Below, piece after piece: positions 6,008 to 31,045 of a stretch of DNA of 32,000 nt. Made by a program: the position numbers and the translations under genes. The stretch covers positions 60,001-92,000 of the forward strand of contig NZ_PQWO01000009.1 of the NCBI RefSeq assembly GCF_003231495.1. The letters are read 5' to 3'. Positions within the stretch are counted from its first letter, which is position 1. Every line of letters starts with the position of its first letter. Below the pieces are notes generated by a model. That model searched no databases. It was given only the letters and a program-made list of their open reading frames with translations, and had not been told where the DNA came from. This stretch comes from Acaryochloris thomasi RCC1774 (GTDB lineage: Bacteria; Cyanobacteriota; Cyanobacteriia; Thermosynechococcales; Thermosynechococcaceae).

Positions 6008-6912
6008 AGAGGCTATTTATAAAGGAAAGCTGAAGTGAGGGTAGTTAGTTGTCTATTGATCATAGATTTCAAGTGTCGCGTTGTTTTGCACTCTATGTCT
6101 GATAAACCCTACGCCACTGACCTGACCGATGCAGAGTGGTCTATCTTGTCGCCTTTGATTCCTAAAGCTAAAACAGGCGGTCATCCCCGCACAGTAGATA
6201 TGCGCTCAGTTTGTAATGCGATCTACTACCAACTCAAAACAGGCTGTCAATGGCACCTACTTCCCCATGATTTTCCGCCCAGCTCAACAGTCTATTTCTA
6301 CCACCGCAGATGGCAGCGCCATGGCCACTGGGAACAGATGAACCATAGACTGCGTGAGCAACTACGCCAAAAGCTAGGCAGAGATGCCCATCCCAGCGCA
6401 CTTGCAACAGATAGTCAGTCGGTCAAAACGACTGAAAAAGGGAAGAGGTGTATGGCTTTGATGGCGGCAAGAAAGTCAAAGGCAGAAAGCGTCATGTCCT
6501 CGTCGATAGCTTAGATCTGCTGTTGAAGGTGGTGGTCACTGCGGCCAACACCAGTGAACGATTAGCTAGCGCCTATGCCCTGATGGAGTTATGGGATGAG
6601 TACCGAAAATGTCTCAATTACGTCAAGGTATTGTGGGTTGATGGCGGCTATAGCGGCGACAAGCTTGCATTGGCGGTATGGCTGATGATTCAAGCAAAGG
6701 TCGAAGTGATTCAACGCATGGGGCCAGAGTTTGAACTTTTACCTAAGCGGTGGGTCGTTGAACGCACCTTTGAGTGGCTCAACTGGTATCGGCGTTTGAG
6801 TAAGGATTACGAGCGCTTACCAGACATGAGTGAGGCGGCTATCTATGCGGTGATGACGAGAATCATGCTGAAACGATTAGCGGCCTAAAGATTCACTTTA
6901 TAAATGCCCTCT
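6008..6912 (+). mobile_element. IS5-family insertion sequence (IS427/IS1031-like size class, about 905 bp)
   Basis: Terminal inverted repeats are AGAGGCTATTTATAAAG (6008-6024) and CTTTATAAATGCCCTCT (6896-6912), matching at 15 of 17 positions. They enclose the two-frame transposase. If the IRs start at GAGG, the flanks are TTA and TGA. Both are TNA but they are not identical, so there is no clean target-site duplication. Confidence 0.85.
6095..6888 (+). CDS. IS5-family DDE transposase encoded in two overlapping frames joined by a -1 frameshift
   Basis: Frame A: MSDKPYATDLTDAEWSILSPLIP...SVKTTEK. Frame B opens after a TGA at 6433-6435 and reads ...REEVYGFDGGKKVKGRKRHVLVD...VDGGYSG...ERTFEWLNWYRRLSKDYE, giving the D, D and E/YREK-like motifs. 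The A-run slippery site gAAAAAg lies at 6434-6440. The likely start is the ATG at 6095 (MSDKPY) rather than 6035. Confidence 0.85.
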
Positions 6913-11328: not shown

Positions 11329-11554
11329 AGATAGAAAACTAATTAAAAATTGTTCCTAATTAAGGTTACATTCATTCGTTAAATATTCAGCGACAGATCC
11401 GCTGAGAGAATTTGAGCTACCAAAGTCTCCTCACCCTGAATAAACCTCTACCTGACCTTTCGCTCAACGGGGTAAAGGGCTATGCCTCTTGTCTTAATGA
11501 TACAATTTCCTGATAAGCTCTTTCCCTGCCGTAGGCAATAGATCTTTAGATTGC

Positions 11555-12562
11555 ATGACTCTGTTTCTCTCTATCCCTGAATATTTGAGCCAGTATCCTG
11601 ACGCAGCGGAATTGCAGCAAGCTATTCGGCAGCCGTGGAGTATTCCTCTCAACGATGCTACGGGACGTAGTTATGGCTACCGTCAGGATGTCAACCTGCG
11701 ACCAGGGTTATCCGTCTTAATTGATGACTATACGCTCCAGGACGATTTGATTGTCGAATTGAGCAGTAGTCAAGGTTATGAACCTGCTCGACTGGGATTA
11801 GAGATGAGCTTTCTCCTCTCGGGTCATAACCGAGCTGAAGGGGTTCAAGTCCACCATAATTTTCTCGATGTCAGTTGGGATAGTTCAGATGGTGGACAGT
11901 TTGACTGGCAAGCTGGAGAACGGATCTTGAAGCTTGATATTCATATCGAACCTTATCTATTCGAGACCCTTGTGGGTGAACAGCTTGAGGCGCTCCCCTG
12001 CACCTTCTGTGAGCTAATGCGAAATCCGCAGTTCAGTCATAAAAAATTCAGGCAGGTTGCTCCGACGACGGCCACCATGCAAACGGCTCTTCATCAAATT
12101 TTGCATTGTCCTTACCAAGGCTTAACCCGCTGGCTCTTTTGGGAAAGCAAAGTCTTAGAGCTGATCGCGTTACGGCTAGATCAGATGAGCCAATCAAGCG
12201 CTCCATTGATGACCCCCAATTGGTCTACAGACGATGTGGATCGTATCCATTACGCTAGCAGTATTTTACTTAAACACTTGGTTGATCCGCCTTCTCTTGA
12301 GCAACTAGCGCAGCTAGCAGGACTCAATGATCGCAAGCTCAAAGAAGGCTTTCGGCAGGTGTTCGGTACAACTGTTTTTGGCTACTTAACCCAGTATCGG
12401 ATGGAAAAAGCCTGCCAGCTTCTTAGGCAGCAACAATCAGTGGCGGCGGTCGCGATAGCCGTTGGCTATGCTAGCCCCACAGCCTTTAGTGGCACGTTCC
12501 GGCGACGGTTTGGGATGTCCCCCAAAGGGTACCAGGTGGCAAAACGTAGAAGATATTCGTAA
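11555..12562 (+). CDS. AraC/XylS-family transcriptional regulator, PchR-like by genomic context (module 1)
   Basis: C-terminal double HTH: PPSLEQLAQLAGLNDRKLKEGFRQVFGTTVFGYLTQYRMEKACQLL...VGYASPTAFSGTFRRRFGMSPKGY. Lies directly upstream of a TonB-dependent receptor gene. Confidence 0.9.
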   Translation: MTLFLSIPEYLSQYPDAAELQQAIRQPWSIPLNDATGRSYGYRQDVNLRPGLSVLIDDYTLQDDLIVELSSSQGYEPARLGLEMSFLLSGHNRAEGVQVHHNFLDVSWDSSDGGQFDWQAGERILKLDIHIEPYLFETLVGEQLEALPCTFCELMRNPQFSHKKFRQVAPTTATMQTALHQILHCPYQGLTRWLFWESKVLELIALRLDQMSQSSAPLMTPNWSTDDVDRIHYASSILLKHLVDPPSLEQLAQLAGLNDRKLKEGFRQVFGTTVFGYLTQYRMEKACQLLRQQQSVAAVAIAVGYASPTAFSGTFRRRFGMSPKGYQVAKRRRYS

Positions 12563-12605
12563 ATAGTCCGTTTTAAAGAGAAAAATAGTCCGCTTCAAAG
12601 AGAAA
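12562..12605 (+). promoter_or_regulatory. Tandem 22-bp direct repeat (AATAGTCCGTTTTAAAGAGAAA / AATAGTCCGCTTCAAAGAGAAA); candidate AraC operator of receptor gene 1
   Basis: Read directly: 20 of 22 positions are identical and the two copies are exactly adjacent. The repeat starts within the araC stop codon and lies 88-131 nt upstream of the receptor ATG. The core GTCCG(T/C)TT-N5-AGAAA recurs at 29344-29382. Confidence 0.5.
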
Positions 12606-12634
12606 CACACGCTCCACGCCCCATAGAATTTAAT

Positions 12635-12655
12635 TGCAAATAATTCTTGTTTGCA
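12635..12655. promoter_or_regulatory. AT-rich inverted repeat TGCAAA-N9-TTTGCA; weak Fur-box-like candidate proximal to receptor gene 1
   Basis: Sequence TGCAAATAATTCTTGTTTGCA followed by TATTATC, 38-58 nt upstream of the ATG at 12693. Similarity to the Fur consensus is only partial. Confidence 0.3.
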
Positions 12656-12692
12656 TATTATCGGTGGATCTGATGGTTGAGTGGTGTGGGAA

Positions 12693-15299
12693 ATGATGGT
12701 TACCAAAACGGTACGACTTGGGCTGTTAGCGATAGGTTGGCTAGGGATGACACCTGTGGCTTGGGCCGAGCAGTCTAATGCAGAAAATTTAGGAAAGACC
12801 AAGCATTTAGCTAATCAGCCTGTAGAAGGACTTGTTGCTGCAGATCAGACCATTAAGACGGGAAAAAGCCTTTCTCAGCAACCCCCAGCTTCTACAGTCA
12901 AAGATTGGATAGCTCAAATTAAAGCATCACAAGTGCAAATTATCAGCGTCAATCTAGAACAAACTGAAGCCGGTTTACAGATGACGCTGGATACAACTGA
13001 CGGGACTTTAGAAACTCCAGCAACAACGGTATCGGAGAACACTCTAGTTGCTGAAATTCCGAATGCAGTTTTATCACTGCCGGAGGAAGAGACGTTTGAG
13101 CAAGTTAACCCAGTGCTGGGGATTGCTCTAGTGAGCGTGACGAGTTTACCGAATGATCAGGTGCGGGTGGCGATTACGGGCACAGACGCTCCGCCTACGG
13201 CTGAAATTACAGCCTCTGCATCGGGTTTAGCCTTTGCCGTTTTGCCAGGAACCGTCAGTACTGAAGGCACTGAAGAAGAGGAGCTTGAGATTACCGTTAC
13301 GGCAGAGCAGAGCGGATCTGAATATTTTGTGCCTGAAGCAGGTGTCACCCGCACTGATACTCCTATTCTCGATACCCCTGCCAGTGTGTTTGTGGTTCCG
13401 CGTCAGGTGTTTGAAGACCAGGGAATCACCAAGTTTTCTGATGCACTGAGAACGACACCCGGTGTATCACAAACGTCAGCGCCTAACGCTAACTTTAACA
13501 ATGTGAATATTCGAGGCTTTGATGTCTCTTCTCCCAGTTTGAGAAATGGCGTCCCTGAAGCCTTTTCGTTCTCTCTGCCCAGAGACTTGAGTAATGTAGA
13601 GCGACTGGAAGTTCTCTCTGGCCCTGCATCTATTGTTGGTGGTCAAATTTCTCCCGGTGGCATCATCAATATCGTCACGAAACAGCCTCTTTCATCCCCT
13701 TTCTATGAGCTATCGGCCAGCTATGGCAGTTTCAATACCTTTGACGGAGGGGTAGATCTTTCCGGTCCTCTCAACAGCGATCAGACATTGAGCTACCGTT
13801 TCAATGCTTCGTACCTGCATTCAGATACACGTGTTGATGTAGATAATGTTGATGTTGATCGTATCTCAATCGCACCTGTACTGAGATGGGATATCAGCGA
13901 CCAAACAAAGCTAACCTTTGAAGGACTGTACCTCAACTCAAAAACTCCTCAGCGAACTGGGTTACCTGCTGTTGGTACTGTTTTAGATAACCCCAACGGC
14001 GAAGTCCCGAGAGATCAGTTTGTGGGAGAACCTGATTTTGACGGTAATGATCGACAAATTATTCAAGTTGGCTATAACTTAGAGCATCAATTGAGCGATA
14101 ACTGGAAGCTGCACCATACATTTCGCTACAATAATTTTCAAATTGAGCAAAGAGAAGCCTTTGCCGATGCGCTACAGGATGACTTGCGAACGTTAGAGCG
14201 ATCTGTATTTTTCGGTCAAGATAATTTTAATAATTTTCAAGCAACTGCCTATATAACAGGTCAGTTTGAGACAGGACCTTTTACCCACAAGCTATCAACG
14301 GGTATTGATTATAGCTTTGAAGAAGACTTTTTTAATTTTACCTTTGGCTCTGTTGATGCTGGAAACATTGACATTTTTGAGCCAGTATTTACCGGTATTG
14401 AGGGGCCGATTCCTGTTGCTGAAATTCAAGGTAGAGATACAAATAGAGGGATAGGACTTTATCTTCAAGATCAGCTAAGCTTATTGGATGATCGCCTCAT
14501 CTTTGTGCTAGGTGGGCGAATTGATTTTATACGTTCTTCCACTGAGAGTTTTAGTGACGGCACCCCGGAAGAATCTCAAAGTGATACAGCTTTTAGCCCC
14601 AGAGTCGGAATTCTTTTCAAGCCCATTGAAAATGTTTCTCTATACGGCAGCTTTAGCCGCTCCTTTCAACAAGTCACGGGCATTAGTGCGACTGGCGAAC
14701 TATTTTCACCCTCTCGCGGAACTCAATACGAAGTTGGTGTCAAAGCGGACTGGCTCGATAAAAGACTCTCGACCACACTTGCTTTTTTCGACATCACTCA
14801 ATCGAATGTTCTGACAACCGATCCTAATAATCCTGCCTTTGAAATTCAAACAGGAGAGCAGCACAGTCGTGGAGTTGAGCTATCGGCCCAGGGAGAAATT
14901 CTACCCAATTGGAACGTGATTGCGTCCTATGCCTACACAGATGCAAAAGTGACGGAAGACAATAATATTCCCGTGGGCAATCGCTTTGCAAATGTGCCGG
15001 AGCACTCTGCTAGCCTATGGACGACTTACACCATACCTAGCGGTAGCTTGGCAGGATTGGGTTTTGGTCTAGGGCTATTCTATGTCGGAGAGCGGCAGGG
15101 AGATTTAGAGAATTCTTTTCAAATACCGAGCTATTTCAGAACCGATGCAGCTATTTACTATAAACGCGATAGATTCAAAATTGGGTTGAATGTGAAAAAT
15201 CTGTTTGACATTGACTATATAGAATCTAGTGACGACATTCTCAGAGTTAACGTCGCTGACCCCCTTACTGTCCAATTGTCAGTTTCTTATGAGTTTTAG
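12693..15299 (+). CDS. TonB-dependent siderophore receptor with an N-terminal AMIN-like extension (module 1)
   Basis: Signal peptide MMVTKTVRLGLLAIGWLGMTPVAWA, so ATG 12693 is preferred over the track's GTG 12681. An extension of about 120 aa is followed by the TonB-box-like ELEITVTAE and plug motifs TDTPILDTPASVFVVPRQV and RGF. A long beta-barrel ends ...LSVSYEF with a terminal Phe. Confidence 0.9.
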   Translation: MMVTKTVRLGLLAIGWLGMTPVAWAEQSNAENLGKTKHLANQPVEGLVAADQTIKTGKSLSQQPPASTVKDWIAQIKASQVQIISVNLEQTEAGLQMTLDTTDGTLETPATTVSENTLVAEIPNAVLSLPEEETFEQVNPVLGIALVSVTSLPNDQVRVAITGTDAPPTAEITASASGLAFAVLPGTVSTEGTEEEELEITVTAEQSGSEYFVPEAGVTRTDTPILDTPASVFVVPRQVFEDQGITKFSDALRTTPGVSQTSAPNANFNNVNIRGFDVSSPSLRNGVPEAFSFSLPRDLSNVERLEVLSGPASIVGGQISPGGIINIVTKQPLSSPFYELSASYGSFNTFDGGVDLSGPLNSDQTLSYRFNASYLHSDTRVDVDNVDVDRISIAPVLRWDISDQTKLTFEGLYLNSKTPQRTGLPAVGTVLDNPNGEVPRDQFVGEPDFDGNDRQIIQVGYNLEHQLSDNWKLHHTFRYNNFQIEQREAFADALQDDLRTLERSVFFGQDNFNNFQATAYITGQFETGPFTHKLSTGIDYSFEEDFFNFTFGSVDAGNIDIFEPVFTGIEGPIPVAEIQGRDTNRGIGLYLQDQLSLLDDRLIFVLGGRIDFIRSSTESFSDGTPEESQSDTAFSPRVGILFKPIENVSLYGSFSRSFQQVTGISATGELFSPSRGTQYEVGVKADWLDKRLSTTLAFFDITQSNVLTTDPNNPAFEIQTGEQHSRGVELSAQGEILPNWNVIASYAYTDAKVTEDNNIPVGNRFANVPEHSASLWTTYTIPSGSLAGLGFGLGLFYVGERQGDLENSFQIPSYFRTDAAIYYKRDRFKIGLNVKNLFDIDYIESSDDILRVNVADPLTVQLSVSYEF

Positions 15300-15368: not shown

Positions 15369-16445
15369 GTGAAAAAAATACAGTTAAAGAAAACAGTACT
15401 CTATGGAAAATCTACGATTAATTGGATTTCAATCCATTGCAATCGCAGTTTCCGAATGTTTCTCTTATTCGCAATGACCGCCTTGATCATCGCTTGTAAT
15501 CACGCCTCAAATCCGGCTGTCACTTCCCCCACTGATTGTCGAACGATTCAACATGCAATGGGAGAAAGCTGTGTTCCTACTACCCCCCAGCGCTTAGTGG
15601 CCCTGAGTTCGCCCACAATGGCAGATGCGATCGCACTAGGCGTACGGCCGATTGGTACAGTTTTACAAGACTTTGATTTTCAAAAAGCTCCGCCCTATCT
15701 AGAAGGACGACTACAGGGCATTGAAATTGTAGGCAAAGAAGAGCAGCCTGACCTAGAAAAAATTCTATCGCTTAAACCCGATCTTATTATTGGCCTGCAA
15801 TATGACTCTGAGCCAGTCTATGACAAACTCTCACAAATTTCTCCAACCGTTTTAGATGATTGGAAGGGCTACCCTTCTTGGAAAGAACACTTTGATTTTG
15901 TGGCTCAAGCTTTAGGTAAAACCGAAGCAGCCCAACAAATATGGTCGCAGTACGATCAACGTATTCAAGAGTTGAGAACAGCCCTTGGTCCAGCTTACTC
16001 GGATCTTGAAATCTCATTTGTGAGGGTCTGCTGCGGCAATTGGGCCACGGATGTCAAAAACTCTTTTAGCGGCATGATTCTTGAAGATGTCGGCCTAAGT
16101 CGTCCCCCTGCTCAGGATATTGAAGTTGAAAATGGACTTGTTTTTCTCTCTGAAGAGGCCCTCACTCAGTTTGATGGCGACATTATTTTTCTGGTTGTCG
16201 ATGCAGATCAAGATTCTGCAGATGCCTTAGAGCAGCTTAAGCAGAAACCCCTTTGGCACAAACTGAAAGCTGTACAGCAAGGGAAAGTCTATCCCGTCAA
16301 TCTTGCAACATGGCGGGGCGGAAATCCCTTAGCTGCTGATGCCGTAATCGATGACCTTTTCAAATATTTGGTAAAAGTTCCAGATTCACAAGGCTCGAAG
16401 TCAGATCACAAAAATACGATGGCCGAGAATGCTCCTACTCGATAA
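15369..16445 (+). CDS. FhuD-like (type-2 periplasmic binding protein) iron-siderophore ABC substrate-binding lipoprotein (module 1)
   Basis: Hydrophobic leader with lipobox MFLLFAMTALIIAC. Family pattern RLVALS...LGV.PIG...KPDLIIG...LWHKLKAVQQGKVYPV. The start is uncertain: GTG 15369 or ATG 15456. Confidence 0.85.
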   Translation: MKKIQLKKTVLYGKSTINWISIHCNRSFRMFLLFAMTALIIACNHASNPAVTSPTDCRTIQHAMGESCVPTTPQRLVALSSPTMADAIALGVRPIGTVLQDFDFQKAPPYLEGRLQGIEIVGKEEQPDLEKILSLKPDLIIGLQYDSEPVYDKLSQISPTVLDDWKGYPSWKEHFDFVAQALGKTEAAQQIWSQYDQRIQELRTALGPAYSDLEISFVRVCCGNWATDVKNSFSGMILEDVGLSRPPAQDIEVENGLVFLSEEALTQFDGDIIFLVVDADQDSADALEQLKQKPLWHKLKAVQQGKVYPVNLATWRGGNPLAADAVIDDLFKYLVKVPDSQGSKSDHKNTMAENAPTR

Positions 16446-16447
16446 AT

Positions 16448-17293
16448 CTACCGCTCCTCCAGCCAGCTCTGTAAATCTGCCAAACTCGTGAAATCTAGCA
16501 GTGCCTCACTCAAATCTTCAAGTTCAGGCAAAGAAAGAGAGGCAAGGTGCGATCGCATTTCTTCCGGCAGCATTTGTCCTAGGCGATAAGTCAACTGGCG
16601 CATCACCACAGATAAAATCCCCTCCTCTTTTCCCTCTGCCTTGGCCTCTCGAATAGCACGAGGTTCCTCTGTTAAATCTAGACCTAACATTGCCTTGACC
16701 TCCGCTCGACTCGCGTTCTTTAGTTTGTACACCATAATTGAAGTCACTATGTCTATTATGTCTCGTCTTTTCTCCAAAGTGAATCCCGCCTGCTCAGTAC
16801 GTGCGATCAGATCCCTCGCAGCTTCAGGCGCTTCATTCTCTTTCACAATCGTCAACACCATTGCCCCTACAGCAATCGGAAGAGAGTCGATCTCTCCCGC
16901 CTCATTCAGATATACGCGATGAACCTGGTTGCCATTGAGCAGCGATCGATGGGGATGAAGCTTACTCTGTTCAGCCGCGCGAGAAGGATAAATGATCACC
17001 GCCTGCCAATCTGAAAAACGAGCGCTGTTGCGGTAAAAGTACAGCGCCGATTCACTAAACAATCGCTCGTAGAGTTCTTCATCCTTTTGCATCTGGACTT
17101 CGCAGAAGAAAACGACACCTGGTTCATCTCCCTCTGGCGGCAGGAACACCCCGTCAATTTCGAACTTGGGTTCCTTGACGGCAACTGAATCGAATCGATA
17201 GCCAGCCGCATTATTCGGTCTTTCCCCCAGCAGATCGAACAGCAGCTCGGGCGATTGCTGAAACAGCTTGTAGAACAGAGGGTCACGCCGCAT
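16448..17293 (-). CDS. Rpn-family recombination-promoting nuclease / putative transposase-like protein (DUF2887-type N-domain plus DUF4351-type C-domain)
   Basis: The N-terminus MRRDPLFYKLFQQSPELLFDLLGERPNNAAGYRFDSVAVKEPKFEIDGVFLPP...VVFFCEVQMQKD matches my memory of the cyanobacterial DUF2887/Rpn-like pattern, with a D...E.Q nuclease-like core. The C-terminal helical half is paralogous to 29512-29952. Its stop is only 2 nt from the convergent stop of the binding-protein gene. Confidence 0.75.
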   Translation of the reverse strand: MRRDPLFYKLFQQSPELLFDLLGERPNNAAGYRFDSVAVKEPKFEIDGVFLPPEGDEPGVVFFCEVQMQKDEELYERLFSESALYFYRNSARFSDWQAVIIYPSRAAEQSKLHPHRSLLNGNQVHRVYLNEAGEIDSLPIAVGAMVLTIVKENEAPEAARDLIARTEQAGFTLEKRRDIIDIVTSIMVYKLKNASRAEVKAMLGLDLTEEPRAIREAKAEGKEEGILSVVMRQLTYRLGQMLPEEMRSHLASLSLPELEDLSEALLDFTSLADLQSWLEER

Positions 17294-18769: not shown

Positions 18770-19687
18770 CTATCTCACTCCCTGTACATTAGTCTCTGCA
18801 AAAGATTGAGGATAGATAAGGGGCAGAAGCCGCTCTAACATTAACCCGATCAAACGAGTGCCGTTGCCCCAGTGCCAAAATGGCTCAATTTCATAGACCT
18901 GTTGAGTCTGCACAGCCTTAAGCTGCCTCCAGGTCGGATGCTGATGAAGCTGCTCAGAGAGCGGTTTATTTTTAGGACTAAAAGATTGCACAAAAATAAT
19001 ATCAGGATCAACCGTCAAAATTCGCTGCAGCGAGAGGTAGATCAGTCCAACTTCTCTGCGCTCAGGCTTTGGCTTTGACCAAGGGAAATTTGTAAATTGC
19101 TGCAGAACACTACCGACCGTCCCCGTATCCGTTTCTACGGGATAGCAGTTCAACCTGCGATTGATGGTTGCACCGCCCATGACTATTACAGTCGGTTGAG
19201 ATTGGTGCTGTAGCAGCCGTTGCATATCTCGAATCTGTTGGGTGAGGGTTGCGATCGCATCCTTCCCCTGTCTCTCTCGCCCCGTCCAACGACCGACCCG
19301 CTGCAGTCTAGCGACAGCGGCATCATAACCCGCTCCTTCCACCAGCAAGAGCGGCGCAATACGGTTGAGTTGCTTATAAAAACGGTGGGGGAAATGCCAG
19401 CCTAAAATCAAATCGGGATGGCTTTGGCGAATAGCTTTCCAGTTTGGAAAAATCCACGATCCGGCGTTCATGAATGATCGAGCGCGATCGCCGTAAAACT
19501 CCGGTCGGTCAGCGACGCCCTGATTAAGATAGCCCACTGGCTCTAGCCCCAGTTCAACCAAGCAATCAAGCCCGGTTGCCGTCAGGCAAACAATCCGTTG
19601 AGCAGGCTGATCTAACCGAATTTCAGCACTAAGGTCATTACTTTCCTGAATTGGAGTCGCTTTAAACGCACTCTTTCCCTTTGTCAT
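18770..19687 (-). CDS. FhuD/BtuF-like type-2 binding-protein fold without any signal peptide (predicted cytoplasmic)
   Basis: Family pattern RIVCLTATGLDCLVELGLEPVGY...HPDLILGW...DPDIIFV...WRQLKAVQTQQVYEI. The preferred start is ATG 19687, which overlaps the stop of the upstream methyltransferase frame as ATGA. Neither this start nor the longer track ORF (to 19783) encodes a hydrophobic leader. Confidence 0.75.
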   Translation of the reverse strand: MTKGKSAFKATPIQESNDLSAEIRLDQPAQRIVCLTATGLDCLVELGLEPVGYLNQGVADRPEFYGDRARSFMNAGSWIFPNWKAIRQSHPDLILGWHFPHRFYKQLNRIAPLLLVEGAGYDAAVARLQRVGRWTGRERQGKDAIATLTQQIRDMQRLLQHQSQPTVIVMGGATINRRLNCYPVETDTGTVGSVLQQFTNFPWSKPKPERREVGLIYLSLQRILTVDPDIIFVQSFSPKNKPLSEQLHQHPTWRQLKAVQTQQVYEIEPFWHWGNGTRLIGLMLERLLPLIYPQSFAETNVQGVR

Positions 19688-20577
19688 ATCGGTTCTGGTC
19701 CCAGTTGCAATCGCACAATTCGGCCTGAGTTTTTGAAGAGCGCCATTGGGAGCGCTGGGAGTAGCTGACTGATTACCCGCCACGTCGTGGGTAAACGCTG
19801 GGGATAGTCGAGAAAATGCTGGAGATAAAATTGTTCTTCTTTCAGAACAAAATTAGGATTCCAGGTTTCCAGCTCGCGGGAGCGATCAATGCCCCATTGA
19901 AACTGAGCTGAGGTTTTAGAAACTGTGTCGTGGCGACGAGTACGATTGGCAACCTTGCGGTTGAGAACATCAAATACAACGTGGGCAAAGCCGAAACGAC
20001 GCTCAAGCTGTTCTAATAACGCTCGGTTGTCTGCTTCGCTGAGGTACATTGAAACCCCTTCATAGATAATCATCACGGGTTGGTTCGGCTGATGATCAAC
20101 TGCATCTATCCAGGCAAAGTCTAAGATAGAAGACGCGATCACAGTGTTGCGATCTCATCCCTCAAACAACTGCCGCCGTAGCTCAATCACCTCGGGAAAG
20201 TCGATATCGTACCAGCGGACTTGGGCTGTCTCTAGGCGCAAATAGCGCGTGCAAAGCCCTGCCCCCAAATTAACAATTATTGCTTCAGGGTGGGTGTCAA
20301 TGAAGGTTTGGACTAGCATATCGATGTGCCAAGCCCGAATCACACAGCCCAACTGAGATGACCATCCTGGCTCGAATTTCGCAAAGTCATAGTCGAGCCG
20401 CTGAGCGATTTCAATCGCCTTTTCATCCTGTAAAATGGCATCAGACTTTTGGCTTTCAGCCGCTCGTGCATAGAGTGTAATGAGTAGCGTTTCAGGTACA
20501 CCCGCAAGCTGCAATGAGATATCAGAAGTGGCTGACATAGGAGCGTCTAGGGATAGAGAACAGGGGGCTGTGATCAC
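19684..20577 (-). pseudogene. Class I SAM-dependent methyltransferase (TcmP / leucine carboxyl methyltransferase-like family) interrupted by a single in-frame TGA at 20155-20157
   Basis: Two track ORFs (20155-20577 and 19684-20142) are in the same frame. My reading across the junction is ...ELRRQLFEG-TGA-DRNTVIASSILDFAWIDAV.... The N-half has the SAM motif IVNLGAGLCTRYLRL and the C-half has IIYEGVSMYLSE. Together they give about 297 codons, the normal length for the family. Confidence 0.75.
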
Positions 20578-20611
20578 ATCAAGTCAAATTCAGGAACGAA
20601 ATTGATGCCAG

Positions 20612-21226
20612 CTATGCTGCAACCGGGGTCAGTGAAAAATATTGGTGATAGTCCCGCACTAGAGCGACCTTGCCATAACGCGGATCAATCTCAATTCCCT
20701 GAATCTCTAGGGAGCGACAGCTTGTGCTACTCGCGATCGGAATGCTGTAAAATTCTGTCTCTAGTGCTTTGAGTGGCAGGCATAACTTAAAGATAGTGGA
20801 CCTATAGGCCGCAGGGATAAACCCCTCACCCCCCATGTTTAAAGCGGGCTGATTATGAAAAGAGAGCTGTCCGGTATTGTTCAGAATTCCGGCAGGCGTC
20901 TCAAACTGCTCACACCAGCGCAGCGCTAGGAACCATTTTGCATCTGCTAGACGGTTAAAAACACGCTCCGATTGAGTTTGGGGTAAGACCTTATATCCTC
21001 CTTCCACGGCCATGATCGAGCCACCTAAAAATCCAAATAAAAGTCCAATCGAGTTACTCATGAAACGGCTATCCATACGCTGCAAAAGAAAACCCTGGAG
21101 AATATGCCTATCCCCCAGGTGAGTTTGACTGTGTTGAGAGGGAACGTCTAAAGTCAAAGAATCAATAGTTTTGTCGTAGGTTTCGTAATTTACCCCTTCG
21201 ACCGATAGGAGTAGAGCTGCCAGCAT
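20612..21226 (-). CDS. Hypothetical protein (no family recognised)
   Basis: 204-codon ORF in the same orientation as the flanking genes and tightly packed with them. The start is uncertain: ATG 21226 overlaps the upstream gene by 37 nt, and internal ATGs lie at 21076 and 21061. One hydrophobic stretch, SIGLLFGFLGGSIMAV. Confidence 0.45.
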   Translation of the reverse strand: MLAALLLSVEGVNYETYDKTIDSLTLDVPSQHSQTHLGDRHILQGFLLQRMDSRFMSNSIGLLFGFLGGSIMAVEGGYKVLPQTQSERVFNRLADAKWFLALRWCEQFETPAGILNNTGQLSFHNQPALNMGGEGFIPAAYRSTIFKLCLPLKALETEFYSIPIASSTSCRSLEIQGIEIDPRYGKVALVRDYHQYFSLTPVAA

Positions 21227-25454: not shown

Positions 25455-25601
25455 TAGTTTGGCTCCTGATCCGATGCTTTTGCATGCACTTAAGACAAGA
25501 TGCTCAACTAGCTTAAATGCAGAGACGGGGGTTTCCTTAGAGATTTTGAATCTAAAACGTATTTTTTTGCGCCCGAAACGCAGTTTTTGGATATCCGTTC
25601 T

Positions 25602-26678: not shown

Positions 26679-29240
26679 TTAAAAATTGACTGTGACTGAA
26701 CCAATGACCGTAAACGGTTCACCGACTTCTGAACCAAATGTACGACTGTTGTTGCTGCCGACAATGTAATCAACGTCAAAAATGTTTTTAAAGTTGAGGG
26801 CCAGTCGCCAGTTATCACGGCGATAAAACATCGCTGCATTGGCTAGGAAGTAGCTGTCTAGCTCGAAACTATTGGCGAGGTCACCTTCTCGTTCTCCTAA
26901 AAAGTTGAATCCAAGCCCAAACCCTAAGCCCTGTAGATCGCCCGATTGAATCTCATAGGTGCTCCACACACTGCCGCTGTGCTCAGGGATATTGACGAGG
27001 CGATTGCCTTCAGGAATCGTATTATCTGCAGAGACTTCTGCGTCAGTGTAGGCGTAGGAGGCGATCACGTTCCAGCCCGGTAGAATCTCACCTGTAACAT
27101 CAAGCTCGACACCTCGACTGTTTTGGGCACCCGTGGCAACGGATGAAAAGGGATCGAGGGGATCGGGGGTCGCCACATTTCTGCGGCTGATGTCGAAATA
27201 ACTCAAGGTGGCAAAGAGCCGTTCATTCAAAAGAGCCGCCTTTACACCCACCTCAAACCCTTCGCCCCGCTCTGGAGGGAGTAGCTCACCGCTGCTGGTG
27301 GTCTCCGTGTTGGGCGTGAAGGACTGGGAATAGCTGGCAAATAAGGACAGAAATTCGAGGGGCTGGTAAACGATGCCAAAACGCGGGGTCACAGCATCAT
27401 CATTTTGGTCCGCTTCAGAGCCAACGGGATCAGAAGCAGTCGGCCCATTCGTGATGTTCTGATCGACGGTGTCATAACGAACACCAGCGACCAAGATTAG
27501 GTTGTCCAATACCTTGATTTGATCCTGGAGAAAAAGGCCTAAGCGATTGGTTTGTACCTTTTCATTGAAGGAAATCGGTAGGCTGCCACTATCAATCGGT
27601 GCGAGACCAAAGACCGGGTTGAAAATGTCTAAGAAAGAGGGTGAGGCGAAGTCAAAGCGAGAAAGATTTTGCTCATCGGTTCGATTCAAATCAACTCCCA
27701 CCAATAGCTTATGGTCAATGGGACCAGTGGCAAACGCTCCGACCACGCTGGTTTGGAGAGAAAAATTGGTTGCGTCGATGTCTGCGCTTCCAGGGAACCG
27801 CATGACGAGACCTGTGGCTTCATCGAACGCGAGAGGCAGCACGGCCGTATTCAATAGATCTCGTCTTGAATATTCAAAAGCATTCCGTATCTCCCACCGA
27901 TCGTTAAACTGATGCTCAAAACTATAGCCCACCCGAAACAGGGTGCTGTTTACGAAGTTTTCGGGTTCAACAATGATGCTGCTAAAGGGAACATCGGCTA
28001 CGCCATTGCCGATGGCCGGCAAGCCAATATCAAAGGGTTGTGAATCAGTCGCATACTCAGCTTTTAGGGTGAGATTGGTGCGATCGCTAATTCGCCAGGA
28101 TAAGACAGGGGCAACGAGGAAGCGTTCAATGTCTACATCAGAGTCTATGAAGTCACTGTCGCGAGAGTAAGACACGTTGAGCCGATACAGTAAATCTTTT
28201 TTTGGGGTCAAGGGGCCGGTTAGATCGATTTGAGGCTGCACGAAGCCTCGGTTGCCCAACTCCAGACCGATCTCATAGGCCGGTTGATCCAGCGGCTGCT
28301 CCGTGACGATATTGATGATGCCTCCTGGCTGTAGCTCTCCATACAAAATGGAGGCCGGTCCCTTAAGCACTTCAACTCGTTCTACATTCCCAAGGGCTGG
28401 GTTGGCCCCTGTGAAGCCGCCAAATTCTCTGAATCCATCTCGCAGAGTGGGAGCATCAAACCCCCGAACGTTGAAGTCTATGCTGACCCCGCCAAAGGTA
28501 TCCCCAAAAGTGACACCACTCACGTTCCTGAGCGCTTCATCAATACGGGTGACCTGCTGATCTTCTAAGACCTGCTTCGGCACGACTTGAATGGATGTCG
28601 GTGTATCCAAAATAGGCGTATCGGTGCGCGTTGTAGGACTTACCTCCGGGACCGCGTAGCCCTCTGGGCCTCTCTCTGCAGTCACCGTGAGTTCTAATTC
28701 TTCCTCTTCTGAAGCAACTGGTGAAACTGCATCCACCGCAAACACCAATCCCGATATTTCACTCTGAATCGTGACTGTTGGGGGGCCTTCTATCCCCACA
28801 ATCTCAACCTGTACCTGATCTCCTGACAGAGGTATGACGCTAACCTGAGAGATACCTTCGACGGGATTATCTTGCTGATATTCTGGACCGCCCGGCAAAG
28901 CCAGCACTGCGTTGGGAATAATGGCCGTAAGTCGGTTCCCCTCAGTTGTAGCGGCGGGAATCGCTAGGTCATCCGCTGTAGTTTCTAGAACAATTGAGAG
29001 CCCCTGCTCCGTCGGGTTAATCTGTATGCCCGTCACCTGAATTTGCGTTGCTTCGATCTGGGCCAGCCATTCAGTGACGCTAGCGGCGGGCTGACGGTCT
29101 TCCGGCTCCAAAATTTCTAAAAGTTCAGCCAATTCGTCAGTTGTCGCAGGCTTCTCGGTGGCCAAAACCGATTGGGTTGCTCCCAAACCTGCCAGCGCGA
29201 TTGCCCACAGCGGCAAAAACTTGCCAAACCTTTGTTTCAT
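26679..29240 (-). CDS. TonB-dependent siderophore receptor with an N-terminal AMIN-like extension (module 2)
   Basis: Signal peptide MKQRFGKFLPLWAIALAGLGATQSVLA, an extension of about 120 aa, the TonB-box-like ELELTVTAE, the plug motif TDTPILDTPTSIQVVPKQV, and a barrel ending ...GSVTVNF. Confidence 0.9.
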   Translation of the reverse strand: MKQRFGKFLPLWAIALAGLGATQSVLATEKPATTDELAELLEILEPEDRQPAASVTEWLAQIEATQIQVTGIQINPTEQGLSIVLETTADDLAIPAATTEGNRLTAIIPNAVLALPGGPEYQQDNPVEGISQVSVIPLSGDQVQVEIVGIEGPPTVTIQSEISGLVFAVDAVSPVASEEEELELTVTAERGPEGYAVPEVSPTTRTDTPILDTPTSIQVVPKQVLEDQQVTRIDEALRNVSGVTFGDTFGGVSIDFNVRGFDAPTLRDGFREFGGFTGANPALGNVERVEVLKGPASILYGELQPGGIINIVTEQPLDQPAYEIGLELGNRGFVQPQIDLTGPLTPKKDLLYRLNVSYSRDSDFIDSDVDIERFLVAPVLSWRISDRTNLTLKAEYATDSQPFDIGLPAIGNGVADVPFSSIIVEPENFVNSTLFRVGYSFEHQFNDRWEIRNAFEYSRRDLLNTAVLPLAFDEATGLVMRFPGSADIDATNFSLQTSVVGAFATGPIDHKLLVGVDLNRTDEQNLSRFDFASPSFLDIFNPVFGLAPIDSGSLPISFNEKVQTNRLGLFLQDQIKVLDNLILVAGVRYDTVDQNITNGPTASDPVGSEADQNDDAVTPRFGIVYQPLEFLSLFASYSQSFTPNTETTSSGELLPPERGEGFEVGVKAALLNERLFATLSYFDISRRNVATPDPLDPFSSVATGAQNSRGVELDVTGEILPGWNVIASYAYTDAEVSADNTIPEGNRLVNIPEHSGSVWSTYEIQSGDLQGLGFGLGFNFLGEREGDLANSFELDSYFLANAAMFYRRDNWRLALNFKNIFDVDYIVGSNNSRTFGSEVGEPFTVIGSVTVNF

Positions 29241-29284
29241 TGCGTCTCACCCACACCACTTACAGCAGCTAGATTAAAACCTAG

Positions 29285-29302
29285 CTAATGAAAATTATTC
29301 TT
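29285..29302. promoter_or_regulatory. Fur-box-like sequence CTAATGAAAATTATTCTT proximal to receptor gene 2
   Basis: 13 of 18 positions match positions 2-19 of the classical Fur consensus GATAATGATAATCATTATC (hand alignment). It lies 45-62 nt upstream of the ATG at 29240, between the tandem repeat and the start codon. Confidence 0.35.
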
Positions 29303-29343
29303 ACTTGGTCAGTGAGAGCATCGTAGCGGGTGGTTGAGAGCAA

Positions 29344-29382
29344 AATCTTTGCGAAACCGACTTTTTTCTTCGCGAAACGGAC
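29344..29382 (-). promoter_or_regulatory. Tandem direct repeat on the minus strand (GTCCGTTTCGCGAAGAAA and GTCGGTTTCGCAAAGATT, 21-bp period); candidate AraC operator of receptor gene 2
   Basis: The plus-strand copies TCTTTGCGAAACCGAC (29346-29361) and TCTTCGCGAAACGGAC (29367-29382) are 14 of 16 identical. The repeat shares the core GTCCGTTT-N5-AGAAA with 12562-12605. It lies 104-142 nt upstream of the receptor ATG. Confidence 0.5.
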
Positions 29383-29511: not shown

Positions 29512-29952
29512 TCATTCCTGCGTTGCGAGCCAATTATGTATATCGTTCAAATGATTGAAATCTAACAGAGCTTCTCCTAATGCCGTCAGTTGTGCAGACG
29601 ATAAGGTGGAGATGCGATCGCACATTGATTCATCTAATGTGCCCATTTTTTTTGTAAGCAGGTGCAGGATCAGCGATCGTTCCCCCTCTTCCTTGGCTTC
29701 CTGAATAGCACGTGGCTCCTGCGTCAAGTCAAGTCCTAACATGGCTCTAATCTCCGACCGGCTTAAACTAGCAAACTTATATACCATTATAGAGGTCACG
29801 ATATCGATCAAGTTTGCGCGTTCTGTCGTTGTGAACGCCTCTTGCTCAGTGTGCTCTAGCAACCATCTCGCAGCGGCTGGCGCTTCATCTTTTTCAAGGA
29901 TCGTCAACACCGTAGCAGCAACAGGAAGAGGCAGCGATATTACATCACCCAA
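29512..29952 (-). pseudogene. N-terminally truncated Rpn-like paralogue retaining only the C-terminal (DUF4351-type) half; remnant or stand-alone small protein
   Basis: The product aligns to residues about 135-281 of 16448-17293, for example IDIVTSIMVYK, AMLGLDLT.EPRAI.EAK and EALLDF..L.D...WL. It has a TTG start and similarity fades within about 11 codons upstream, at a TGA at 29986-29988. Only 79 nt separate it from the araC stop, so the nuclease domain is absent. Confidence 0.55.
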
Positions 29953-30031: not shown

Positions 30032-31045
30032 CTAGGCTCGCTGACCCAGTTGATATGCCTTTGGGCTAACCGCAAACTGTCGTCGGAAGGCAGTGCTAAA
30101 CGCTTCTGGGCTTCGATAGCCTACTGTGGCCGCAACCTTGGCAATAGTGAGTTCAGAGTTGTGCAGTAGTGATTGGGCCTGCTGCATTCGATGCTGTTGC
30201 AGATAGCCAAACACCGTGGTGCCAAACAGTTGCCGGAAACCCTGATTGAGCTTGCGATCGTTGAGACCCACCTGACGAGCCAGATCGATCAAAGTGGGGG
30301 GCTGTTTTGCTCGCTGGATCAAGATCTCCTTTGCCTGATGGAGCTGTTCAACATCCTGACTACACAAAAACATCGGAGTTGCATAAGGTTGTTCGTCTTG
30401 CCAGACGGAAAATTGGGTAGTGAGTAATTCCAACGCCTTACTTTCTAAGTAGAGCTGCTGCATTAACCCTGTATAGGGACAGTGTAGGATTTGCCGAATC
30501 TGTTGCTGTATAGATCGAGAGATTTGTCCCAGTGATTGATGAAATCGCTGAGTTCTGTCCCCCTCTAGTAGATGTTGTAAGGGTGCGGGCAGTCCTTTTA
30601 TTCCCAGGTTGAAGGTACCAAAGTAGCTTGGATCTACGACAATCATGAGCACATGGATGGACTGATCGGCGGGCCATTCTTCAATTTCTGTGTGGCTGGG
30701 GAGATGATAGAGGTAGTGGCAGTCCGAGACTTCCCGATAGTCACGACTGATATCTAGGGCATCCGGCGTTTGCACTCGAGATGTCCCTGACAAATAGAAC
30801 TTAGCGACCAACGGGAAATTAGATTCATGTTCGATAACGTGGCGAATCGTCTGCCTGAGTCTACCCTGACGGATATATATTTCAAGTCCCTGACGGAGCT
30901 GGAGGATGCGATCTCCGCCTTGCCCTAGCTGTTCCGGCAAATTGTGCTGAAAACCAGAATCTATGGGCTGATGAACTTGTTCACCCCGATGCTTGGCTTG
31001 TTCATACAAATCCTGAAAATCGGCATTGGTCAGCGTGATCGCCAT
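30032..31045 (-). CDS. AraC/XylS-family transcriptional regulator, PchR-like by context (module 2)
   Basis: C-terminal double HTH PPTLIDLARQVGLNDRKLNQGFRQLFGTTVFGYLQQHRMQQAQSLL...VGYRSPEAFSTAFRRQFAVSPKAY. Shares QILHCPY.GL and ESK.LEL with the module-1 regulator. Confidence 0.9.
   Translation of the reverse strand: MAITLTNADFQDLYEQAKHRGEQVHQPIDSGFQHNLPEQLGQGGDRILQLRQGLEIYIRQGRLRQTIRHVIEHESNFPLVAKFYLSGTSRVQTPDALDISRDYREVSDCHYLYHLPSHTEIEEWPADQSIHVLMIVVDPSYFGTFNLGIKGLPAPLQHLLEGDRTQRFHQSLGQISRSIQQQIRQILHCPYTGLMQQLYLESKALELLTTQFSVWQDEQPYATPMFLCSQDVEQLHQAKEILIQRAKQPPTLIDLARQVGLNDRKLNQGFRQLFGTTVFGYLQQHRMQQAQSLLHNSELTIAKVAATVGYRSPEAFSTAFRRQFAVSPKAYQLGQRA

Follow-up and report, generated by a model that had tools for sequence, protein, structure and literature searches.

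The locus examined here raises the question of how paralogous IutR/PchR-like regulators of the AraC family choose among siderophore receptor promoters. Regulators of this kind were recently shown to be essential to the low-iron response of Synechocystis, and their recognition sequence has so far been defined solely by ChIP-seq motif enrichment. The window, a 32-kb stretch of cyanobacterial DNA (Acaryochloris thomasi RCC1774), is an iron-uptake island with two paralogous modules, each with a tandem repeat in front of its receptor gene. We consider it likely that these repeats, at 29344–29382 and 12566–12605, are the operators of a PchR/IutR-type activator of the AraC/XylS family encoded just upstream.

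Two modules and their tandem repeats

In both modules an araC gene (pchR/iutR-like) is followed by genes for a TonB-dependent siderophore receptor, a FecB-like binding protein and an MFS protein; the island additionally carries a fecCD/ATPase operon and ferritin-like genes. The genes needed for the analysis are as follows.

11555–12562, + strand: araC1, 100% identical to 'Regulatory protein PchR' of Acaryochloris thomasi RCC1774; helix 1 LNDRKLK, helix 2 ASPTAFSGTFRR
12693–15299, + strand: TBDT1, TonB-dependent siderophore receptor (AMIN, Plug and barrel), above the TIGR01783 cutoff
15369–16445, + strand: FecB-like binding protein of module 1
30032–31045, − strand: araC2, PchR/IutR-like AraC-family regulator; helix 1 LNDRKLN, helix 2 RSPEAFSTAFRR
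29512–29952, − strand: shortened DUF2887/DUF4351 open reading frame between araC2 and the repeats, covering positions 134–200 of the 200-position DUF2887 model
26679–29240, − strand: TBDT2, TonB-dependent siderophore receptor (AMIN, Plug and barrel), 409 bits against a TIGR01783 cutoff of 223.5
26672–25602, − strand: binding protein of module 2
25454–24171, − strand: MFS gene of module 2

TBDT1 probably starts at the ATG at 12693, which shares its frame with the GTG listed at 12681. The MFS gene of module 1 lies further downstream of its binding-protein gene. The pairing of a regulator gene with an adjoining TonB-dependent receptor gene, whose product exceeds the TIGR01783 cutoff in both cases, is that of the PchR/IutR type. 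HTH_18 and HTH_AraC match the C-terminus of both AraC open reading frames, and the DNA-binding domain aligns with MarA across both helix-turn-helix motifs; the N-terminal ~240 residues matched no Pfam or NCBIfam family. Homologues carry JGI names describing pyochelin-receptor activators, the PchR naming being by homology only. The models that the receptors resemble most are those of the hydroxamate receptors FhuA and FoxA, and no siderophore biosynthesis genes are found among the open reading frames annotated in the window. Identity between the modules is 34% for the AraC proteins and 45% for the receptors, which makes them old paralogues.

The repeats consist of two units in each receptor promoter.

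29382–29365, − strand: distal unit of the TBDT2 promoter, GTCCGTTTCGCGAAGAAA, with the upstream A-tract absent
29361–29344, − strand: proximal unit of the TBDT2 promoter, GTCGGTTTCGCAAAGATT, with AAAAAA directly before it and G at core position +1
12566–12583, + strand: distal unit of the TBDT1 promoter, GTCCGTTTTAAAGAGAAA, beginning 4 nt past the araC1 stop codon
12588–12605, + strand: proximal unit of the TBDT1 promoter, GTCCGCTTCAAAGAGAAA

These four 18-mers had been reported in a first-pass annotation of the window and all are present at exactly these positions, with a period of 21 bp in the TBDT2 promoter (pair 2) and 22 bp in the TBDT1 promoter (pair 1) and with no internal repeat of 10–11 bp in the units of either pair. 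The spacing claimed between the repeats and the receptor start codons also holds, at 88–127 nt (ATG 12693) and 104–142 nt (ATG 29240), and TBDT2 is presumed to be the gene regulated from the repeats at 29344–29382. Each pair was further said to lie downstream of a co-oriented AraC gene; this is true of both, with the qualification that the araC2 stop codon is ~650 bp away and that the shortened DUF2887/DUF4351 reading frame lies between. A full-length DUF2887/DUF4351 copy is found at 16448–17293 (−), between the binding-protein and MFS genes of module 1.

The pattern GTCSGYTT-N5-AGAWW, in which the similarity had been summarised, has four matches in the window, all at these sites, against an expectation of 0.01; the test is circular because the pattern was derived from the same four sites. 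The GTCCGYTT core occurs four times where we estimate that ~2 would be expected. A Hamming search with the 18-mers of pair 1 did not single out pair 2 (sum of 24, counted by hand, with shuffles giving a mean of 22.6 and a maximum of 26), and within-window similarity was therefore dropped as the main argument. The best other match in that search, a tandem at 16160/16137 (−) with GGCCTCTTCAGAGAGAAA and GTCCATTTTCAACTTCAA 23 nt apart, lies antisense in the binding-protein gene of module 1 and is probably due to chance, since both of its units are without the CCG core.

The pairs are the top two among all 18-nt tandem direct repeats of period 19–24 in the whole window, with 16/18 and 14/18 identities. 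A family weight matrix built solely from other genomes places pair 1 first in the window (31.6 bits) and pair 2 fourth (16.6 bits), within the extreme tail of block shuffles whose mean is 8.8 (sd 3.3) and maximum 20.1. The low score of pair 2 arises because its distal unit is without the A-tract and its proximal unit has G for C: core position +1 is C in 115 of 118 family units and G in the unit at 29344–29361. Once circularity is removed the within-window statistics are weak, and the case that the repeats are more than chance rests mainly on their geometry and on comparative data.

Promoter geometry and conservation

Downstream of the repeats both receptor promoters carry a −10-like hexamer and an AT-rich element resembling a Fur box.

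12624–12629, + strand: −10-like hexamer TAGAAT of the TBDT1 promoter, 18 nt past the proximal unit
12634–12662, + strand: putative Fur-box-like element of the TBDT1 promoter, AATAATTCTTGTTTGCATATTAT, in which the AT-rich box reads AATAATTCTTGTTTGC
29325–29320, − strand: −10-like hexamer TACGAT of the TBDT2 promoter, 18 nt past the proximal unit
29282–29304, − strand: putative Fur-box-like AT-rich element of the TBDT2 promoter, downstream of the −10, AATAATTTTCATTAGC

The gap from the end of the proximal unit to the TAnnAT hexamer is exactly 18 nt in both promoters, and neither has a −35 hexamer. If the hexamers are −10 elements, an assignment made by position only, the proximal unit would span about −48 to −31 and the distal unit about −70 to −53, the proximal unit overlapping the −35 position because it ends 18 nt before the hexamer. 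A scan for consensus promoters found nothing in the TBDT2 promoter and, in the TBDT1 promoter, an alternative sigma-70-like promoter (TTGCAA-16-TATTAT, 12634–12661, +) inside the Fur-like region, which would shift the repeats to about −63 to −102. The comparative phasing described below favours TAGAAT as the −10 of this promoter.

Relatives were collected by scanning one genome per species, which gave 80 cyanobacterial loci with an araC relative, of which 78 could be scored; a co-oriented receptor homologue lies downstream in most of the 80. Taking a conserved tandem to be one of at least 14/18 identity and period 19–24 at the araC stop codon, we find such a repeat at or after the stop in 48 of the 78 loci; among 1646 control windows taken from these loci the proportion is 4.2%. 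Periods of 21–22 predominate in the related promoters (n = 59). Aligned on the core, the family unit reads A (−7 to −3), n, T, C, C, G, k, y, T and then a variable box. An A-tract, nTCCGnnT and a box B describe the recognition unit better than the core followed by AGAAA that had been put forward earlier.

A motif-first scan of 642 kb of these loci gave 64 TCCG tandem pairs where shuffles give ~0.45. Forty-five of them lie directly after an araC stop, and most of the others count such a site again from the opposite strand, the core TCCGGA being palindromic. Several of the remainder are just upstream of a receptor gene that is parted from araC by an inserted gene, as in module 2; in related loci with such an insertion the repeats remain beside the receptor. 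The distance to the −10-like sequence is likewise conserved. Among 59 aligned promoters, 31 have a TAnnnT that begins 20 ± 1 nt after the proximal unit and 24 have one that begins at 31 nt, so that the positional enrichment accounts for 55 of the 59 in two phases 11 nt, or one helical turn, apart. Both window promoters fall in the 20-nt phase. In the 31-nt class (mostly Nostocales) the loci inspected by eye show a conserved TTCA[GC]T, a −35-like element, 17 nt before the −10.

These data bear on two alternative explanations of the repeats. Similarity left over, without function, from the duplication of the araC–receptor module would agree with the clear paralogy of the modules and with a plain comparison of the pair 1 and pair 2 18-mers that does not rise above shuffles. 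At 34–45% protein identity, however, neutral non-coding DNA should have been randomised, and the surrounding promoter sequence of the two modules indeed does not align. Despite this divergence both promoters keep the repeats, the 18-nt gap to TAnnAT, the Fur-like box and a 5′-UTR element (see below). The same type of repeat is found across many genera in the 48 loci, keeps its distance from the −10-like hexamer and covaries with the regulator, and we regard a mere remnant as extremely unlikely.

The position between two co-oriented genes would equally suit an element acting in RNA, as the araC 3′-UTR, a terminator or a structure in the receptor 5′-leader. The units, however, are direct and not inverted repeats, with a −10-like hexamer at a fixed distance and with covariation that follows DNA-recognition helices. 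Scans of the receptor promoters revealed no terminator-like hairpin, and the window has no Rfam match. We attach next to no probability to this explanation and take the repeats to be DNA sites that are probably operators.

Covariation between regulator and proposed operator

If the repeats are recognised by the neighbouring regulators, the bases of the unit would be expected to change with the residues of the recognition helices. The relevant residues can be placed by alignment with MarA, a protein in which W42/H43 (helix 3) and S90–T93 (helix 6) are said to have been described by Rhee et al. in 1998 as the base-contacting ends of the recognition helices. In the MarA/SoxS/Rob marbox system (structure 1bl0) MarA binds a single asymmetric site as a monomer, whereas the window sites consist of two tandem units; the covarying residues found here nonetheless align with the same W42/H43 and S90–T93 positions. 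A mutual information analysis over all protein and DNA columns was abandoned, with hypervariable protein columns at the top of its list and a permutation maximum near the observed values, and was replaced by contingency tables for the positions in the recognition helices.

In these tables the base two positions before CCG follows the pair of AraC residues that align with MarA W42/H43. Arg-Lys goes with G in 25 of 34 cases, the exceptions being mostly GTCCCG variants by our reading of the aligned units; Cys-Thr goes with T in 38 of 38; and Tyr, Cys, His or Phe followed by Lys goes with A or C before TCCG. As related sequences are not independent, these counts overstate the number of independent events. 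The helix-1 states nevertheless change at least 16–19 times on a tree built from the part of the protein that does not bind DNA, so the association is not a single inherited event.

The residues aligned with MarA S90–T93, at the start of the second recognition helix, track box B (+6 to +13) in the same way. SPT[AS]F is found with AAGAGA, [SN]PEAF with C[AG]AAGA, HLSHF with ATGGATA and DRSYF with AGCCACCA. Hybrids occur, such as the locus L001, which combines Tyr and ATCCG with SPTAF and AAAGAGA, and these indicate that the two halves of the unit vary independently. By this comparison each unit contains two sub-boxes, each following one recognition helix.

In the window both AraC1 and AraC2 are of the Arg type in helix 1, which matches GTCCG, whereas helix 2 is SPTAF in AraC1 and SPEAF in AraC2. 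The operators differ correspondingly at +8 (A for AraC1, C for AraC2) and at +10 (G and A, respectively), so that each promoter appears to carry the site cognate to the regulator of its own module. These observations fit the earlier suggestion that the two paralogues might be told apart by the variable N5, as +8 and +10 both lie within N5 and would be read by helices of different type. The common 5′ box would, by analogy with related regulators, allow some cross-binding between AraC1 and AraC2. Conservation, the fixed distance to the −10-like hexamer and covariation with two helices together support the proposal that the repeats are putative operators of the adjacent AraC paralogues.

The same results bear on whether the units are instead bound by a regulator that is not encoded next to them, such as Fur, a response regulator of the OmpR/PhoB type or a global iron regulator. 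The setting, an iron-uptake island with Fur-like boxes close by, would suit such a factor, and binding by AraC is here a prediction from sequence. The units are, however, direct repeats with a G+C-containing GTCCG core and a period of 21–22 bp, and resemble neither the AT-rich palindrome of ~19–23 bp of a Fur box nor the 10–11 bp repeats of OmpR/PhoB sites. The Fur-like sequences are separate elements 30–60 nt downstream of the units, and similar TTGAnAAnnATTCTTAAT elements occur at the corresponding place downstream of the −10 in related loci. That the base before TCCG and box B change repeatedly across the tree with the helices of the adjacent AraC protein is a pattern that a global factor would not give, and we judge binding by a non-neighbouring regulator very unlikely.

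The correspondences may form a modular, readable code, an idea to which we give about even credence. The base before TCCG would, in such a code, be dictated by the residue aligned with W42 (G by Arg, T by Cys-Thr, A or C by Tyr or Cys), and box B by the first turn of helix 2. A single genome could then accommodate many mutually insulated regulator–operator pairs, each linked to a different xenosiderophore receptor, and in the window AraC1 and AraC2 would be separated only by helix 2 and by +8/+10. If this is correct, regulons could be predicted and orthogonal promoters designed from sequence alone.

Proposed control of the receptor promoters, and neighbouring elements

In AraC (araI1–araI2), RhaS and XylS, two direct-repeat half-sites of ~17 bp lie ~21 bp apart with the proximal one overlapping the −35, and each half-site of an AraC/XylS dimer is read by both helix-turn-helix motifs of one monomer. 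Each receptor promoter of the window has two direct-repeat units of ~17–18 bp with a period of ~21 bp and a gene for an AraC-family protein with two such motifs nearby, and the placement of the proximal (−48 to −31) and distal (−70 to −53) units presumably matches that of araI1–I2. The N-terminal domain of the window proteins differs from that of AraC in having no detectable similarity to the sugar-binding domain, and evidence of a distal looping site was not seen in the window. A class II AraC-type activator site is the best-supported reading of the repeats, in which binding, the effector and the direction of control are suggested by analogy with Synechocystis IutR1–3, Salmonella FoxR and the AraC family in general.

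According to this model one regulator monomer would occupy each unit of ~18 bp, placing its first helix-turn-helix on the 5′ box, (G)TCCG, and its second on the 3′ box about one helical turn away, and a dimer would be formed by two monomers on the tandem units 21–22 bp apart. The bound regulator would recruit RNA polymerase in the class II manner, since the proximal unit would cover the −35 position of a promoter having only a −10-like hexamer, and the receptor, the FecB-like binding protein and possibly the MFS gene would then be transcribed. Fur-like boxes downstream of the −10 and before the araC genes would add repression when iron is plentiful; when it is scarce, Fur would free both araC and the receptor promoter. 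The likely co-inducer would be the cognate ferric (xeno)siderophore, acting on the N-terminal domain.

Were the AraC proteins mainly repressors or roadblocks, they would block read-through from araC or occlude the −35 until released by ligand. The first unit overlaps or abuts the araC stop codon in many loci, AraC itself both represses and activates, and pchR is found within Fur-regulated operons together with receptor genes (Riediger et al., PMC8634477), all of which such a role would accommodate. Synechocystis without its three IutR genes, however, loses the induction of receptor genes, which indicates activation (PMC11221513). The promoters here have no −35 hexamer at the proximal unit, as in activator-dependent promoters, and module 2 keeps its operator beside the receptor gene, away from the 3′ end of araC. 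Repression as the main role is therefore unlikely, and activation remains the preferred reading.

The closest cyanobacterial counterparts are IutR1–3 (Sll1205, Sll1408 and Slr1489) of Synechocystis sp. PCC 6803, PchR-like AraC regulators (Liu et al. 2024, PMC11221513). As in the window, their genes lie directly upstream of TonB-dependent receptor genes, in pchR–fhuA–fecB modules on which Fur control is superimposed (PMC8634477), and cross-binding among the paralogues was observed by EMSA (PMC11221513). IutR has been called a global regulator (PMC11221513), whereas the footprint described here is local to receptor promoters. Liu et al. give three HOMER motifs from ChIP-seq in a figure, and in their text we found no description of a tandem direct-repeat operator; the supplement holds no motif sequences in text form. 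In a protein search with a Hydrococcus homologue no Synechocystis protein was among the best 120 hits.

A closely similar arrangement is known from another phylum. In Salmonella enterica the AraC-like gene foxR lies upstream of, and co-oriented with, the hydroxamate siderophore receptor gene foxA, and the FoxR operator consists of the direct repeats CGCATAG-N14-CGCATAG, with a 21-bp period, at −62/−56 and −41/−35 of foxA; Fur represses both foxR and foxA, and the siderophore acts via FoxR (PMC9804782). The repeat sequence is different, and FoxR binding and the effect of repeat mutations were established by experiment, whereas the window operators are predicted from sequence. PchR of P. aeruginosa, whose name AraC1 bears in its public annotation by homology only, is described as a siderophore-dependent AraC-type activator of a siderophore receptor gene under Fur control (Michel et al. 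2005, as cited in PMC8634477).

The switch proposed here is of an ordinary bacterial kind and reveals no new kind of regulation, and its regulator family has already been characterised in a single cyanobacterium. In the literature searched we found no description of the tandem operator or of the residue–base correspondence, and the family-wide footprint is a useful but incremental addition. The tandem of A-tract, nTCCGnnT and box B at a fixed distance from the −10 gives a concrete and testable operator model, which allows regulons to be predicted in any cyanobacterial genome and would explain both window sites as cognate operators of two paralogous regulators.

In the first-pass annotation the motif had not been found upstream of the araC genes, the fec operon or the MFS genes. 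This stands for both araC genes, whose upstream regions have no TCCG tandem, and for the MFS gene of module 1, upstream of which nothing comparable was found, but not for the MFS gene of module 2. The elements concerned are the following.

25547–25589, − strand: candidate degenerate tandem, with units of the operator type, upstream of the module 2 MFS gene, AAAAACTGCGTTTCGGGCGCA and AAAAAAATACGTTTTAGATTCA, period 21
25515–25510, − strand: −10-like TAAGCT after this tandem, followed by the Fur-like TTGAGCATCTTGTCTTAAG
11494–11517, + strand: AT-rich Fur-box-like TTAATGATACAATTTCCTGATAAG upstream of araC1
31091–31073, − strand: AT-rich Fur-box-like TTAATGAGAAATACTCTCA upstream of araC2

The tandem at 25547–25589 sits between the binding-protein and MFS genes and scores 21.7 bits with the family matrix, above all 200 shuffles, with cores that deviate from TCCG; it may be a weaker AraC2 site that drives the MFS gene. 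Upstream of the araC genes, the presence of a Fur-like box and the absence of the TCCG tandem suggest that these genes are under Fur control without autoregulation through an operator of the receptor type.

Both receptor leaders also contain a conserved element in the 5′-UTR.

12680–12690, + strand, and 29260–29250, − strand: conserved 5′-UTR element AGTGGTGTGGG, just before the receptor start codons

The family form of the element is GGTGTGAGG, located 2–15 nt ahead of receptor start codons. Of 51 loci, 37 have GTGTG[AG] by the receptor start, where the background frequency is 0.26 per kb, and the fuller form (G)GTGTG[AG]G(G) is present in both window promoters. The element complements CUCCUCACAC, an invariant motif of the cyanobacterial sRNA Yfr1 (PMC2190773). 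Predicted Yfr1 targets in Nostoc include TonB-dependent transporters (PMC6974561), and the element probably serves as a site for Yfr1 pairing that overlaps the ribosome-binding site.

Two further regions of the window may be mentioned. An IS4/IS5-type transposase at 6035–6888 (+) is present as two overlapping reading frames, DUF4096 (6035–6514) and a DDE domain (6448–6888), which could mean that an insertion sequence at the island edge is frameshifted or uses programmed frameshifting. The region 18770–21226 (−) holds a third FecB-like binding-protein gene, with a 14/18 tandem at 19789 just upstream of its start that is unlike the operator, together with unannotated reading frames and an LCM-type methyltransferase gene (20155–20577); the iron-uptake cluster of Synechocystis contains a methyltransferase, Sll1407 (Riediger et al., PMC8634477).
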